Assembly: GCA_001817215.1 (NCBI GenBank)
Contig: MHHX01000019.1
Coordinates: 16,302-80,301 of the forward strand
Reading direction: 5' to 3'
Length of the DNA: 64,000 bases
Source of the DNA: Candidatus Brennerbacteria bacterium RIFOXYC1_FULL_41_11
GTDB lineage: Bacteria; Patescibacteriota; Minisyncoccia; UBA6257; Brennerbacteraceae
This document shows positions 7,582-61,483 of the stretch, piece by piece. The number at the start of each line of letters is the position of its first letter. Position 1 is the stretch's first letter. A program made the translations under genes and the position numbers. The notes beneath the pieces were generated by a model. The model was given only the letters and a program-made list of their open reading frames with translations. It made no database searches and was not told the DNA's origin.

Positions 7582-7643
7582 TTGAATCGTTAAGAGAACA
7601 GATGGCTCTGAACGAAAATAAAAGTCGCCCCAAAAGACGGCTT

Positions 7644-8363
7644 TTATTTTTTAATGTTTATGATTGAAAAGTATTGCGACTCAGCATAGCCCCATTCGAG
7701 GTATCCTTCAAGAGAGATTTCTCTGCCGATATTGTTTTCCAAGAAAATCCACTGGTCGTTTATTGTCGGTATGATGTCAATCATTCCGGTTTTATCAGGG
7801 AAGTTTTCCACGTTGGGGCTGAGTTTTTCAAAAGATTCAGACAGTTTTAATAAATAATCATAGCCAATATCCGGAGCCGGTCTGGCGCCACGTACAACAA
7901 TGCCTTGCAAAATTAGTTTTGCGAGGTTATTGCCTTGCTGTGGCCATTGTCTCAAAGAATCCGGATAGGGATTGCAGTTTGAGTAGTCGATTGTCTTTAT
8001 GCTTTTTACGCTTAAGACTGAACGACCATAAGCTTCGCGGATCTTATCTTTGTTTTTCCATTCTTCCGGGACAGAGCCAGTGATGCGAGTGCATTTCCCC
8101 ATAAGATCGTCTTTCATGTTATCAGAGACCAGATAATAACCCATGATTTGTTCTTCTTGATAGGCTCTATCGTAATCTCCAAAACCAGTGACTTGGTAAT
8201 TGGCGAAAGTCAACTCACGCGTTTGCTTTTCTTCGTCAAGCAACCCGCTGGTTCGGATAACACCGGTAATTATTACCTGGTTTTTTCTCATGCTCCAGAT
8301 AAACCAACTGCTAGCTCCCAGGATAGAGCAAGCAGCTATAATTAAAATGATTATTTTTTTCAT
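7644..8363 (-). CDS. Secreted or lipoprotein-like hypothetical protein
   Basis: N-terminal MKKIIILIIAACSILGASS (signal peptide with a Cys, lipobox-like); no recognisable catalytic motifs. Confidence 0.45.
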   Translation of the reverse strand: MKKIIILIIAACSILGASSWFIWSMRKNQVIITGVIRTSGLLDEEKQTRELTFANYQVTGFGDYDRAYQEEQIMGYYLVSDNMKDDLMGKCTRITGSVPEEWKNKDKIREAYGRSVLSVKSIKTIDYSNCNPYPDSLRQWPQQGNNLAKLILQGIVVRGARPAPDIGYDYLLKLSESFEKLSPNVENFPDKTGMIDIIPTINDQWIFLENNIGREISLEGYLEWGYAESQYFSIINIKK

Positions 8364-11111: not shown

Positions 11112-13232
11112 ATGGCTCGAGAATATTCCCTTGAAAAGACTAGAGACTTTGGCATTATTGCTCACATTGACGCCGGGAAAACTACTGTTTCCGAAAGAGT
11201 GCTTTTTTATACCGGTATTACTCACAAGATCGGTGAAGTTCACGAGGGCGCAGCCGTAATGGACTGGATGGTCCAAGAGCGCGAACGCGGCATTACGATC
11301 ACTTCTGCGGCAACAACTTGTTTTTGGACCCAAACTTATAAACCAAATTTTGGTCAGGGCAAAGGAGATTATCGGTTTAATCTGATCGACACTCCTGGCC
11401 ACATAGATTTCACCGTTGAGGTGAAGCGTTCTTTGCGTGTTCTTGACGGCGCGGTTGTTGTTTTTGACGGTGTTTCCGGAGTTGAGCCTCAATCGGAAAC
11501 CAACTGGCGTTATGCAGACGAATATAAAGTACCGCGTCTTTGTTTTATTAATAAACTTGATCGTCTCGGTGCGAGTTTTGAAAATTCTTTGGCTTCAATT
11601 CACGAAAGGCTGACTGTTAATGCTGTTCCAATTCAGCTGAATATCGGTTTGGAAAGTCAGTTCGTTGGTGTTATTGATTTGATAAGAATGAAAGCTGCTT
11701 ATTTCGACGGGGATCGGGGCGAGACTGTCAGGCTTGAGGAAATACCACAAGATCTTTTGAACCGAGCCAAGGAGGCGAGAGCGGCAATGATTGAGAAGGC
11801 TGCAGAGCAAGACGATGTCTTAATGGAAAAATATCTTGCTGGTCAAGAGCTGACCGAAGACGAGATTCGTTCTGGAATCCGCAAGGGTACTTTGGCTTAT
11901 AACTTTGTACCGGTTCTCTGCGGATCAGCTTTGCATAATAAAGGCGTTCAACTTATGCTTGATGCGGTGGTGGATTTTTTGCCATCACCAGAAGACATTT
12001 CTGAGACGAAACCAATCAAGGGCATTAATCCGAAAAATGGCGAAGAGTTGATCAGACAGCCAAGCGATTCCGAATCTTTCGCGGCCTTGGCGTTTAAAGT
12101 GGCGGCTGATCCCTTTGTCGGCAGTTTAGTTTATTTTCGTGTTTATGCTGGTTCGTTAAAGCGTGGCAGCTATGTGTTTAATGTAACCAAGGAAGAACAG
12201 GAGCGGGTTGGCAGAATCTTGAGGATGCACGCTAATCAAAGAGAAGAGGTTGAGGAGGTCTATACCGGGGACATTGCCGCGTTGGTTGGTATGAAAAATA
12301 CCTCTACCGGAGATACGCTTTGTGAACAAGCAAATCAGATCTTGCTTGAAAGAATTATCGTGCCAGAACCAGTGATTTCAATGAAGATTGAACCGAAGAC
12401 GAAGATTGATCAAGAGAAAATGGGACTGGTTTTGAAAAAACTTCAAGAAGAAGATCCGACTTTCAGAGTTAAGACTGATCAGGAAACTCTGGAGACAATT
12501 ATCTCCGGTATGGGAGAGTTGCATCTGGATGTTTTAGTAGATCGGATGAAAAGAGAGTTCGGTGTTGAGGTTAATGTCGGTCGACCGCAAGTAGCTTATC
12601 GTGAAACTATTAGGCGCGAAGCCAAAGAAGAAGGAAAATACATCAGGCAGTCTGGAGGTCGCGGTCAGTATGGTCATGTTTGGCTTGAGATCAAGCCGAG
12701 AGAACGTGGTCTGGGCTTTAAGTTCAATAATTTGATTAAAGGAGGCGTGATTCCTTCAGAGTATATCCCGGCAGTCGAGAAGGGTGTTAAGGAAGCTATG
12801 GACCGTGGTATTATCGCCGGTTTTCCGTTATCTGATATTGAGGTTAGTCTTTATGACGGTTCTTATCATGATGTCGATTCTTCAGAATCTGCTTTCAAGA
12901 TTGCGGGGTCCATGGCTTTTCAAGGGGCGGTCAAAAAAGCTGACCCGGTTCTTTTGGAACCGATCATGAAGGTTGAGGTAATTGTTCCGGAAAAATTCCT
13001 TGGAGATATCACCGGAGATCTTTCCTCCAAGAGAGCAAGAATTGAAAGAATGGGCGATCGGGCCGGGGCGAAGATCATTGATTCCATGGTGCCGCTGGCC
13101 GAGATGTTCGGTTACGCGACAAAATTAAGGTCAATGACTGAGGGTCGCGGGACATTTACGATGGAGTTTGACCATTACGAAGAAGTTCCAAGGAATATTG
13201 CCGAGCAGGTAGCTTCAGGCGCAAAGAAGTAG
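11112..13232 (+). CDS. fusA: Elongation factor G
   Basis: [26 protein letters not shown]-motifs; 706 aa; str-operon position. Confidence 0.95.
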
Positions 13233-13343
13233 GTTTTTTTATGGGCTACGGTGAGTTCGTCGAATCCGTTGACTTTTAGCCTGACCTGAGCTAAAATCTT
13301 AAACACGTTATCAGTAAATTAAAGTTTTAAAAAATAATATCAT

Positions 13344-14537
13344 ATGGCTACAGGAACATTTGAAAGAACAAAGCCGCATGTTAATGTCGGTACAATTGGT
13401 CACGTTGACCACGGTAAAACGACTTTAACCTCTGCTATCACCAAGGTTTTGTCGATGAAAGGTCTTGCCAAGGGTCTTGATTACGCAGAGATCGACAAGG
13501 CTCCTGAAGAAAAAGCTCGTGGCGTGACGATTAATCTTCATCACACTGAATACGAATCAGAGAAAAGGCACTACGCTCATATTGACGCTCCTGGTCATGC
13601 TGATTACATCAAGAACATGATCACTGGCGCCGCCCAGATGGACGGTGCGATCTTGGTTGTTTCGGCTCCAGATGGTCCGATGCCTCAAACCAGAGAACAC
13701 ATTCTTTTGGCGAGACAGGTGGCAGTACCGAAAATTGTTGTTTTTATGAATAAAGTGGACATGGTTGATGACCCTGAACTTTTGGATCTTGTTGAGGCCG
13801 ACATTCGCGAACTTTTGAAAAAATATGAGTTTCCTGGTGACGAGACTCCGATTATTCGTGGCTCAGCTTTGAAAGCCATGGAGGCCAAGACGCTTGATGA
13901 TCCGGCTGTTAAACCAATTCTCGATCTTGTAGCTAAGATTGACGAGTACATTCCAGAACCGACACGTGATATTGATAAACCATTCTTAATGCCTATTGAG
14001 GATATTTTCTCAATTGAAGGTCGCGGTACGGTGGTAACGGGCAGAATCACTCGTGGCATTGTTAAGATTAACGAGGAAGTTGAAATTGTCGGTATCAAAC
14101 CGACAGTAAAAACCGTGGTGACTGGTATCGAGATGTTTAATAAGTCTTTGAACGAAGGAAGGGCTGGTGATAATGCCGGAATTTTGCTTCGTGGCACAAA
14201 AAAGGAAGATGTTCAAAGGGGCCAGGTCTTGGCCAAGTCAGGTTCGATTACTCCACACACTGATTTTGAGTGCGAAGTCGTTGTTTTGAAAAAAGAAGAG
14301 GGTGGCCGACACACTGCGTTCATGAATGGTTACAAACCGCAGTTTTACATTGGCACAACTGATGTGACGGGTGATATCACCTTGCCAGAGGGACGGGAAC
14401 TGGTAATGCCCGGAGACGCCGCTTCTTTCTCGGTTAAACTGATTCACCCCGTGGCACTTGAAGAAAGACAGAGATTCGCTTTCAGGGAGGGCGGCAAGAC
14501 CGTTGGTGCTGGCGTAGTGACAAAGATTGTCAAGTAA
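13344..14537 (+). CDS. tuf: Elongation factor Tu
   Basis: [26 protein letters not shown]; 397 aa. Confidence 0.97.
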
Positions 14538-14582
14538 GGGTTATTAATTGCCACAAATCAGTAATAGCGAAAAGAGAAATAA

Positions 14583-14912
14583 ATGGCTGTTGCCTCAGAA
14601 CCTAAACAAAAGATGAGAATCAAGATTAAGTCTTATGATCATAAGGTTATCGACTCATCTTGCAAATTGATTATTGAAACGGCGCAAAGATACGGAGCCG
14701 AGATCGTTGGTCCGATTCCTCTGCCGACGGAGATCAAGAAATACACCGTGAATCGTTCGACTTTTATCCATAAAAGTTCTCGGGAACAGTTCGAAATGAG
14801 AATCCATAAGCGCTTGATCGATATTTTAAATCCGCAGGTGAAAACCATTGAAGCTTTGACGAATCTTGTTCTGCCTGCGGGTACAGAGATTGAGGTAAAG
14901 ATGAACGCTTAG
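14583..14912 (+). CDS. rpsJ: Ribosomal protein S10
   Basis: [20 protein letters not shown]...; alternative start at 14613. Confidence 0.9.
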
Positions 14913-15115
14913 AATTGAGATTGTTGGTTTAGGGGTACGCCCCCACACCCGTCCTTGTAAAGCTGCCGTGAGAGAAAAAGTTTTCTGAAGAATTAAATCT
15001 CTTTTAGAGTTATTTATCAGAATAGGTGTGGGGGTGGTTTTAGAAAAGCGTCCCAACCAGACGCTTTTCTCAATGCTTATTGAGTAAAAAATTATAGAAA
15101 ATTAATTTTAACGCG
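14913..15115. promoter_or_regulatory. Unusually long structured spacer (about 200 nt) between rpsJ and rplC, with a long-range stem and a terminator-like hairpin
   Basis: CCCCACACC at 14948-14956 is complementary to GGTGTGGGG at 15027-15035. Hairpin GAAAAGCGTC-ccaaccag-ACGCTTTTC at 15040-15066. Confidence 0.4.
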
Positions 15116-15721
15116 ATGCGTTTATTAATCGGAAAAAAATTAGGCATGATGCAGGTTTTTGATGAGGCATCTGGTAAGGCTACGCCAGTGAGTCTGGTTT
15201 TGGCTGAACCAGTGACAGTTACGGGAATCAAAGACTCTGAGAAACATGGCTACTCAGCCGTTCAAGTTGGATATGGCAGAAAAAAGTTTGTCAAGAGGCC
15301 ACAGGTGAAGATCGGATCTTTCGCATTATTGAAAGAGTTTCGCGTTGATAATGGTAAGGAAAATAATTTTCATCTTGGCGATCAGATTGGACTTGATATT
15401 TTTTCAAAAGGAGAGAAGCTTGATGTTTTTGGTATTTCTAAGGGACGTGGTTTTGCCGGTGTAGTAAAGAGGCATGGTTTTGCCGGTGGACCGAAATCTC
15501 ACGGGCAGAAGCACAGAGTGAGAGCTCCGGGATCAATCGGTTCGACAACTCCACAGCGAGTTGTTAAGGGTAAAAAAATGGCTGGTCACATGGGATCAAA
15601 AAGAGTGAGTGTGAAGAACCTAGAGGTGGTTAACATTGATTCGGAAAAGAAAATAATCTTTTTGAAGGGTGCAATTCCTGGTTACGCCGGATCGTTACTA
15701 GAGTTGCGATCAAGGTTATAG
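15116..15721 (+). CDS. rplC: Ribosomal protein L3
   Basis: MRLLIGKKLGMMQVFDE... typical L3 N-terminus. Confidence 0.95.
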   Translation: MRLLIGKKLGMMQVFDEASGKATPVSLVLAEPVTVTGIKDSEKHGYSAVQVGYGRKKFVKRPQVKIGSFALLKEFRVDNGKENNFHLGDQIGLDIFSKGEKLDVFGISKGRGFAGVVKRHGFAGGPKSHGQKHRVRAPGSIGSTTPQRVVKGKKMAGHMGSKRVSVKNLEVVNIDSEKKIIFLKGAIPGYAGSLLELRSRL

Positions 15722-25031: not shown

Positions 25032-25069
25032 TGAATACAAACGTCTTATTTCTTCGCAAAAAATACACC

Positions 25070-25100
25070 AAAACACGTCCCGCTAAGCGGGACGTGTTTT
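25070..25100. terminator. Bidirectional intrinsic terminator after secY
   Basis: AAAACACGTCCCGC-taag-GCGGGACGTGTTTT, perfect 13-bp stem flanked by A/T runs on both sides. Confidence 0.8.
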
Positions 25101-25126
25101 GACACAGCAAGGATATTTTTCGTAAT

Positions 25127-27977: not shown

Positions 27978-28221
27978 ATTCTGTAGTCGTGTAGCTCAGC
28001 GACTTTAAAAAATTACGAGTGGAGGGTAATAAGGGTGTGCCTTTATCCAGAGTCTCGGGCTGTTATTTCGCCCCGAGCTTAGCACACTTACCCAAGTTAT
28101 ATGGATATCATATTTTCATTTGTTCGTAGCCGGATGGTTGCGAACAAACAGCGGTCTCGTGTCAAATGGTGCGAGATTTTGCGTTTTAATGCGATTTTCA
28201 TCTGATTTTTATTGATCTTAT

Positions 28222-28257
28222 CGTCAACTATCTTTGCGATCGCGAAGATAGTTGACG
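28222..28257. repeat. Near-perfect 36-nt palindrome centred on GCGATCGC
   Basis: CGTCAACTATCTTTGCGATCGCGAAGATAGTTGACG; 16-nt arms with one T/G wobble position. Confidence 0.7.
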
Positions 28258-28319
28258 CTTAGGTTTTTGTTATAATTAATCTGTATCCTGATCTGTATTT
28301 AGTTTTTGACTTTTAATTT

Positions 28320-28724
28320 TTGGTTATGAATTTATTGGCTGTTGATTTTGGCGAAAAAAACATCGGTTTGGCTTTTTGTGATACAGAAATAAAATTGCCA
28401 TTAAGTCTTGAATCATTGCGAGTTGAGACAGAAGAGCAGGCTTTGCAAGAAATCAGTGAGACGATAAAATCAAGAAATATTGAATTGGCGGTTTTTGGTT
28501 TGCCGTTGAACTTTGAGTTTAAAGAAACAAAGCAGTCTCAAAAAACCAGGGATTTTGCGGCAAAACTTGAAGAAAAACTCGGTGTGAAAATATATTTTAT
28601 TAATGAAGTCTTGAGTTCACTTTTGGCTTCGCGCTTGAAAGAATCAAGTAAAAATACACATTCATCGAGCGCGCTGCTTCTTTTGGAAGATTACTTGGAT
28701 AAGTTAGAAGAACAGGCTAAATAA
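28320..28724 (+). CDS. ruvX: YqgF/RuvX-like putative pre-16S rRNA nuclease (Holliday-junction-resolvase-like)
   Basis: LLAVDFGEKNIGLAF...LAVFGLPLN... pattern typical of YqgF. Confidence 0.6.
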   Translation: MVMNLLAVDFGEKNIGLAFCDTEIKLPLSLESLRVETEEQALQEISETIKSRNIELAVFGLPLNFEFKETKQSQKTRDFAAKLEEKLGVKIYFINEVLSSLLASRLKESSKNTHSSSALLLLEDYLDKLEEQAK

Positions 28725-48063: not shown

Positions 48064-48121
48064 AACATTCATTAAAAATAAAACAGCCTAGGTTCGTTGA
48101 CCTTGGCTGTTTTATTTTGTC

Positions 48122-61427: not shown

Positions 61428-61457
61428 ATCAAAAGCATCCCGCGAGCGGGATGCTTT
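61428..61457. terminator. Bidirectional intrinsic terminator with the core TCCCGCGAGCGGGA (the same core as the groEL terminator)
   Basis: CAAAAGCATCCCGC-gag-GCGGGATGCTTTTG; sits between the convergent ftsX and cupin genes. Confidence 0.8.
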
Positions 61458-61483
61458 TGATACACTAAGGGCATTATAGAGAT

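Follow-up and report, generated by a model that had tools for sequence, protein, structure and literature searches.

The stretch of DNA analysed here (64,000 nt, hereafter the window) encodes an L3 protein with 100% identity to its counterpart in Candidatus Brennerbacteria bacterium RIFOXYC1_FULL_41_11, an uncultivated groundwater organism of the Parcubacteria in the Candidate Phyla Radiation (CPR). According to the list of open reading frames, fusA, tuf and rpsJ are followed by rplC and then by rplD, rplW, rplB, rpsS, rplV and rpsC. Between the end of rpsJ (14912) and the start of rplC (15116) lies a spacer of 203 nt, correctly placed at 14913–15115 by the first-pass annotation and without any base difference among four independent assemblies of this organism (L081–L084). 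The other listed gaps downstream of rplC in this ribosomal protein (r-protein) cluster are 1–32 nt long, and the tuf–rpsJ gap of 45 nt is without comparable structure. The fold of the whole spacer gave z-scores of −4.2 on the plus strand and −4.5 on the minus strand, and beat all 200 shuffled sequences on either strand. The genes and features of the locus are as follows:

11112–13232: fusA, upstream of tuf
13269–13297, plus strand: sigma-70-type tuf promoter, TTGACT-N17-TAAAAT, from the promoter scan (10/12 matches)
13344–14537: tuf, upstream of rpsJ
14583–14912, plus strand: rpsJ (ribosomal protein S10), from the list of open reading frames; Pfam Ribosomal_S10 found on the identical gene in L081–L084
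14925–14935, plus strand: G-rich box, UGGUU-UA-GGGG, complementary to the hairpin loop CCCAACCA
14937–15037, plus strand: rod-like hairpin insertion of 101 nt, with a 12-bp closing helix and an AU-rich interior
15042–15070, plus strand: terminator-type hairpin, A-GAAAAGCGUC / CCAACCA / GACGCUUUUC-U, the core of the element, present in eight lineages
15071–15115, plus strand: AT-rich stretch of 45 nt up to the rplC start, recognized from the sequence and not alignable with relatives
15116–15721, plus strand: rplC (L3), from the list of open reading frames; the L3 identity given above refers to this gene

The sigma-70-type promoter sits in the fusA–tuf spacer, so that tuf has its own promoter inside the fusA–tuf–rpsJ string, and its −35 box, TTGACTTTTA, is kept at the same place in the relative L091. 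On sequence grounds, this promoter is likely to be the start of a tuf–rpsJ transcript that would run into the hairpin element.

The first-pass annotation had taken rpsJ and rplC to be usually nearly adjacent, a premise that proved weak across 74 diverse genomes, in which the estimated gap had a median of about 83 nt and reached at least 100 nt in 35. Long rpsJ–rplC spacers are common among bacteria. A scan of genome contigs with the L3 protein was swamped by a universal peptide pattern and yielded only distant relatives (≤50% identity), which were used only for the spacer-length statistics. Gaps of 350–690 nt (tblastn-based estimate) were seen in L008, L009, L013, L015 and L017 (Woeseiaceae and other Gammaproteobacteria), leaving room for an unannotated gene or RNA; the search with Rfam returned nothing in the gaps of L008 and L013.

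Conserved hairpin downstream of rpsJ

The spacers of relatives were retrieved through L3 and S10 homologues, giving seven lineages and, together with the window, eight. L3 identity to the window is 82% for L085, 70% for L086 and L087, 69% for L089 (Parcubacteria GW2011_GWC1_45_9), 63% for L090, 57% for L091 and 52% for L213, and the L3 tree groups the eight lineages. Their spacers, 84–348 nt long, are unalignable except for one hairpin, which in all eight lineages lies between rpsJ and rplC and has the consensus GAAAAGCGUC-N7-GRCGCUUUUC. In the window, this hairpin is single copy and consists of an 11-bp stem (G15043–C15052 with G15060–C15069, plus the pair A15042–U15070) and a loop, CCAACCA, at 15053–15059. 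It corresponds to the second, terminator-like hairpin of the first-pass annotation, which had drawn it correctly except that one stem G was placed in the loop.

In the alignment of the eight lineages, 93.8% of the cells were paired, nine of the 14 pairs were invariant and the ten core pairs were unbroken. One hairpin pair occurs as U-A (five lineages), U.G (L085 and L090) or C-G (L213), and the pair just outside the core alternates between U-A and A-U; the covariation score of the hairpin was reached by none of 500 shuffles. A covariance model of the box and the hairpin scored 55–88 bits on the plus strand against at most 32 bits on the minus strand. On the minus strand the U.G pairs would become A-C mismatches, and the plus strand scored higher; the structure therefore belongs to the plus-strand RNA.

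Five lineages with flanks that have diverged beyond alignment (the window, L085, L086, L087 and L089) share the same 7-nt loop. Variant loops were found in L090 (CUGACCC), L091 (CUGAUCA) and L213, where it is reduced to UUAA (4 nt). Judged from the alignment, such loop identity across five diverged lineages would be unexpected for a plain terminator. The hairpin thus presents itself as a conserved structured RNA in an untranslated region directly 5' of r-protein genes, as expected of an r-protein leader, and its stem of 11–14 bp with covariation is as expected of an intrinsic-terminator stem-loop.

The motif is absent from the more distant Parcubacteria L092, L215 and L217, and the covariance model of box and hairpin (R1) found no further member among 94 sources. 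A scan of metagenomes for GAAAAGCGTC-N7-GNCGCTTTTC gave 119 loci, all of them unrelated generic terminators and none adjoining S10 or L3. Stems of the form GAAAAGCGTC...GNCGCTTTTC serve as ordinary terminators across many metagenomic contigs that are unrelated (L094–L212), including dozens of near-identical ones from the gut, so that the CPR motif cannot be recognized by its stem sequence alone. Scans of viral contigs gave no matches, and one further contig look-up led only to the L089 organism again.

A scan with Rfam had been suggested together with the first-pass annotation. With Rfam 15, only tRNAs reached the gathering threshold in the window, so that no family matched the spacer. At E ≤ 10 the best match in 14500–15300 was SraG, with 21.7 bits against a threshold of 50, and it reflected the terminator shape only. 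Likewise, in 20 long-spacer loci the rpsJ–rplC interval matched no family.

Upstream G-rich box and the 101-nt insertion

The G-box is kept in six lineages, as (U/C)GGUU(A)GGG in L086, L087, L089 and L090 and in an altered version in L091, and L213 is without it. In relatives, the box lies 5–20 nt 5' of the hairpin, while in the window the 101-nt insert lies between the two. Duplexes of the loop with the upstream sequence had energies of −8.4 to −10.3 kcal/mol, with a weaker value of −6.2 in L085, in which the box–loop pairing contains two mismatches. Control duplexes with downstream sequence gave about 0 to −4 in six of the seven lineages, L085 being the exception.

When the register of the box–loop duplex was set by hand, pair p3 ran from G-C through G.U to A-U and pair p4 from U-A through U.G to C-G across the window group, L090 and L091. 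These changes follow the pattern expected of a maintained pairing and are suggestive of one. The formal count of box–loop covariation, which used four distinct sequence types and a register chosen by eye, was not significant, the observed score being reached by 127 of 500 shuffles. The matrix of cross-energies between boxes and loops showed no cognate specificity, the one exception being the L091 box against the CCCAACCA loop.

When the nascent RNA was folded only as far as the loop's end, the box–loop pairing formed in the window, L086, L089 and L090, and once the 3' strand was included the fold switched to the hairpin. A compact H-type pseudoknot was considered and rejected, given a linker of 1 nt from the loop partner to the 3' stem strand and of 5–9 nt between box and hairpin (L090 and L085). 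The linkers are too short for the two helices to coexist, and we therefore read the box–loop pairing as a putative competitor of terminator closure, a reading that follows from pseudoknot geometry. An outer helix was also rejected, as the box had no consistent downstream partner across lineages. The apex of a hairpin in the Daviesbacteria locus L007 carries CAUUGGUUG, which matches the G-box 9-mer of L090 exactly; the match may be due to chance, as a 7-mer test gave about two occurrences observed against 1.2 expected by our own estimate.

Between the G-box and the conserved hairpin, the window carries the rod-like hairpin. The first-pass annotation had described a 9-bp long-range helix enclosing an AU-rich domain, and this was confirmed and extended to 12 bp, CGCCCCCACACC at 14938–14949 pairing with GGUGUGGGGGUG at 15025–15036 with one G.U. 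The minimum free energy of the rod is −38.6 kcal/mol (z = −5.75), and none of 200 shuffles folded as well. No relative has the long helix or the AU-rich domain, not even the closest, L085 (82% L3 identity), and the 101-nt insert resembles nothing in the relatives or elsewhere in the window. The conservation in relatives by which the first-pass annotation was to be judged therefore fails for the large domain and holds for the hairpin, with its covariation across eight lineages.

The arm sequence of the rod helix has no second occurrence in the 64-kb window, and a repeat search of the window found no repeats related to the spacer. No target-site duplication is visible, and the insert is single copy in the 64 kb and in all loci examined; classification as a miniature mobile or repeated element was rejected on these two points. 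By comparison with the relatives, the rod domain is a lineage-specific insertion of the window genome. The insertion is self-contained and would leave its two ends together, so that the box–loop pairing would be undisturbed.

Two insertions of about 85–100 nt with long-range-helix hairpins were also observed in L087, one in the rplC–rplD spacer (L087:3107–3246) and one in the 5' part of the rpsJ–rplC spacer (L087:2153–2240), with fold z-scores of only −1.6 and −0.8. Together with the insert in the window, they suggest that such insertions recur in these genomes. Elsewhere in the window, two direct repeats of 55 nt, 96 nt apart, were noted inside a coding region at 979–1129 (GATGTTAATGGTGAT...); from their sequence they look like tandem calcium-binding or dockerin-type protein repeats.

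Strength of the putative terminator and the route to rplC

Four terminators are located at convergent gene ends in the window, each a perfect palindrome of A-tract, GC-stem and U-tract (UUUU), some with only four U:

7616–7650: convergent-end terminator
25064–25106: convergent-end terminator, called on the minus strand only by the terminator scan, which was applied to this one site of the four
48075–48118: convergent-end terminator
61428–61462: convergent-end terminator

In three of the four, GC-rich stems of 9–12 bp carry loops of 3–5 nt. The conserved hairpin has the same A-tract/GC-stem/U4 form, but with only a 5-bp GC core and a loop of 7 nt, and on this comparison it would be a weak version of the local terminator type. 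Its U tract, UUUUC(U/A), has only four U, which pair with the 5' A-tract. In the scan of 14850–15160, generic terminator rules did not call the hairpin on the plus strand; its U4 is taken up in pairs with the A-tract, and by itself the GC core is weak. The scan tool called the hairpin as a terminator on the minus strand in L087 and L091. A further inverted repeat was observed at 28217–28262, a near-perfect palindrome of 46 nt made of two adjacent 23-nt arms (87% complementary). It lies directly 5' of a gene at 28320–28724, at the end of about 900 nt without a long open reading frame.

Between the hairpin and the rplC AUG there are 21 nt in L213, 26 nt in L090, 45 nt in L086, 46 nt in the window, 50 nt in L089, 74 nt in L085, 125 nt in L091 and 176 nt in L087. 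The 21–26 nt in L213 and L090 leave no room for a promoter after the hairpin. A consensus scan of 14850–15160 detected no sigma-70-like promoter, and promoter scans of L087 and L091 gave chance-level sites only. With no room for a promoter and none in the scan, the rplC mRNA must contain the hairpin, and the element is therefore read through rather than being a full stop. The first-pass annotation had described a fresh AT-rich, promoter-like stretch before rplC: the AT-rich stretch is present, and the promoter was found neither by the consensus scan of the window nor as a possibility in the two relatives with 21–26 nt.

The AT-rich stretch (15071–15115) gave no promoter in the scans and has no clear Shine–Dalgarno sequence. 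It contains a small local hairpin, UCAAU-GCUU-AUUGA, at 15070–15083 and a four-codon AUG mini-ORF at 15073–15087. An AUG or UUG lies 3–6 nt 3' of the hairpin in seven of the eight lineages and opens unrelated mini-ORFs of 2–12 codons; in L090 this start codon is in frame with rplC. The AUG or UUG may be nothing more than a piece of the A-rich extension of the stem. A conserved small open reading frame across the hairpin was rejected, since the lineages do not share reading frames or stops.

Terminator-like hairpins of other kinds are found 13–29 nt 5' of rplC in other CPR lineages. In the Daviesbacteria locus L007, the rpsJ–rplC spacer of 255 nt is structured (z = −3.8), and a 14-bp stem followed by U6 (L007:2451–2488) ends about 18 nt before the rplC AUG; L217 has a hairpin followed by U6 5' of rplC. 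In L092, a Parcubacteria relative without the motif (L092:2363–2503), a strong terminator after rpsJ is followed by an inserted HAD-hydrolase gene. Downstream of that gene, rplC is equipped with a promoter of its own, TTGACT-N16-TATAAT, and with a structured leader (about 110 nt, z = −3.9) whose last part, UCACCC-GUUA-GGGUGA-UUUU, stops 13 nt short of the AUG. The UCACCC of this terminator can also pair with a GGGUGA that lies further upstream, a classical attenuator layout. In the Saccharibacteria locus L047, rplC likewise has its own promoter, and there is a long-range helix followed by GUUUU. Most non-CPR genomes with long rpsJ–rplC spacers have no canonical terminator there.

Interpretation and comparison with known systems

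The functional unit at this locus is probably a cis-acting plus-strand RNA of about 60 nt, made up of the G-box (14925–14935) and the hairpin (15042–15070). The reading that we prefer, with a rough probability of 0.45, is that this unit acts as an intercistronic attenuator, that is, a leaky terminator separating tuf–rpsJ from the L3 operon. Transcription would start at the tuf promoter, pass through tuf and rpsJ, and meet the weak intrinsic terminator. Part of the transcripts would stop there, favouring the mRNA of EF-Tu and S10, and the rest would reach the rplC string. Once the loop is transcribed, the G-box could pair with it and compete with the terminator stem, which would favour read-through. 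The suggestion of the first-pass annotation that the spacer holds an attenuator or r-protein-binding element thus remains the preferred reading for the conserved hairpin and the box, and not for the long helix and its AU-rich domain, which the relatives lack.

Capture of the box or the hairpin by some factor could raise termination when r-proteins are in excess, our best guess for this factor being an r-protein of the operon, namely L4 by analogy with Escherichia coli. More tentatively, and doubtful as a whole, the hairpin and the G-box might be the sensor of an r-protein feedback, the first to be described for the CPR, in which the nascent G-box would hold the terminator loop and permit read-through, and in which free L4 or another protein of the operon would free the loop and cause termination before rplC. 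We infer termination, its leakiness, the competing pairing and the protein ligand alike from the features described above. A literature search found no r-protein leader described for the CPR. Resemblance of the element to the L4 site on 23S rRNA, which we take to lie at about nt 295–343, was also considered. Nucleotides 301–316 of E. coli 23S rRNA (GCGUC-UGGAAA-GGCGC) have a stem, GCGUC/GGCGC, identical to that of L085 and L090. In the bacterial large-subunit consensus, this stem of helix H19 is variable and the conserved UGGAAA loop is not shared with the element, and mimicry of the L4 site was dropped as evidence on this basis.

The finding also points to joint expression of rpsJ and tuf in these genomes, with the r-protein string effectively starting at rplC. 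In archaea, S10 travels with the elongation factors and the r-protein string begins at rplC. If the feedback sensor is real, attenuation after rpsJ could be a general CPR trait, in view of L007, L092, L217 and L047, and such a trait would mirror the archaeal split. Ribosomal protein balance in uncultivated CPR bacteria appears to be largely unexplored, and a conserved RNA of about 60 nt before the L3 operon offers an experimentally tractable handle on it. The loop-sequestering pairing, if real, would be an unusual way of tuning a terminator; if it is not real, an ordinary leaky terminator and a neutral insertion of 100 nt would be left.

Other explanations of the spacer have to be weighed against a leaky intercistronic terminator. 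The hairpin is shaped like the terminators of its own genome, L092 and L047 show that a separate rplC promoter exists in other Parcubacteria and Saccharibacteria, and in L092 a strong terminator directly follows rpsJ. These points would fit a plain operon boundary, at which an efficient constitutive terminator ends fusA–tuf–rpsJ and rplC starts from its own promoter in the AT-rich stretch. This is nevertheless unlikely, given the 21 and 26 nt from hairpin to AUG in L213 and L090, the absence of a promoter from the window scan with only chance-level sites in L087 and L091, the weak GC core, and the conservation of loop and box, which would be superfluous for a plain terminator. Less likely again is a role as the 3' end of the rpsJ transcript, either as a small RNA derived from the 3' untranslated region with the G-box as its seed, or as a protected end stabilizing the tuf–rpsJ mRNA. 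A terminator-type hairpin after a conserved short single-stranded motif is indeed the usual layout of such small RNAs, the operon is highly expressed, and in the window genome the RNA would be a stable, well-folded piece of about 150 nt. However, the presumed seed is complementary to a loop within the same RNA, the element is single copy, and in five lineages the hairpin lies 21–50 nt from the start of rplC, which places it in the rplC mRNA as well.

That the hairpin and box form a protein operator, to which L4, L3 or S10 binds so as to repress rplC translation or trigger decay without termination, seems to us more doubtful still. The conservation of stem, loop and box at the sequence level suggests specific recognition, and the intercistronic position would suit an operator, as E. 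coli S7 (rpsL–rpsG) and S8 (rplX–rplE) act at internal intercistronic sites. The S8 site of E. coli has been described (PMC10931766). Against this, the distance from hairpin to AUG varies from 21 to 176 nt, the surroundings of the start codon are not conserved, the element does not overlap the ribosome-binding region, and no rRNA mimicry was demonstrated. We consider it improbable that the 101-nt rod is the functional item, as an independent RNA domain or a miniature mobile insertion, with the rest being incidental. Of all parts of the spacer, the rod folds most strongly (z = −5.75), and it has comparable, though less strongly folded, counterparts of about 85–100 nt in the r-protein spacers of L087, but it is absent from all relatives, including the one with 82% identity, and has no second copy in 64 kb, no target-site duplication and no match in Rfam. 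Very improbable, finally, is a role at the DNA level, as an operator for a dimeric DNA-binding protein or as a minus-strand terminator. The near-perfect inverted repeat with its 7-bp spacer invites this reading, as do the minus-strand terminator calls in L087 and L091, which arise because of the T-run on that side. Yet there are no minus-strand genes nearby, two independent A-to-G changes (in L085 and L090) keep a U.G pair while breaking both the DNA symmetry and the minus-strand pairing, and the asymmetric loop and the box are conserved only in the plus sense.

With regard to known systems, the proposed attenuator resembles the E. coli rplL–rpoB intercistronic attenuator in being an internal partial terminator within one transcription unit, although the genes are different. 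The rplL–rpoB attenuator lowers the expression of the downstream genes relative to the abundant upstream products and is regarded as largely constitutive, and it is not known to have a conserved pair of loop and box. Like the Rfam S10-Clostridia leader (RF03136), the element would be an r-protein leader in the same gene cluster; RF03136, however, lies 5' of rpsJ (L014, L022, L026 and L071) and had no match in the window. The Archaeoglobi L4 r-leader candidate is found directly 5' of rplC–rplD–rplW–rplB (Eckert and Weinberg 2020, PMC7247131), the same gene position as that of the element, but it is an archaeal motif of different structure, rated '?' by its authors (PMC7247131), and its model gave no match in the window at E ≤ 10.

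In the E. coli S10 leader, L4 acts together with NusA at a weak terminator, and an upstream hairpin is required (PMC3616713, PMC10931766). As with hairpins HD and HE of that leader, a weak terminator hairpin stands before the L3-L4-L23-L2... genes and has to be read through (PMC3616713, PMC10931766), and the element, too, has an upstream part, corresponding to the upstream element that E. coli needs for control. In contrast to the E. coli leader, which is 5' of rpsJ and behind its own promoter, the element is 3' of rpsJ in the tuf–rpsJ–rplC string; assignment to the E. coli type of L4/S10 leader, with its HD–HE pair between promoter and rpsJ, was rejected because of this position after rpsJ. 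There is also no similarity between the two in sequence or in Rfam, and the E. coli mechanism works without a loop-sequestering pairing. The infC–rpmI–rplT leader of Bacillus subtilis is an L20-controlled attenuation system of about 200 nt behind a promoter (PMC1865079). The two are alike in that an r-protein is proposed to choose between alternative pairings that decide whether the terminator forms (PMC1865079). In the infC–rpmI–rplT leader the antiterminator and terminator strands overlap, whereas the competing pairing proposed here would use the loop of the terminator and not its stem.
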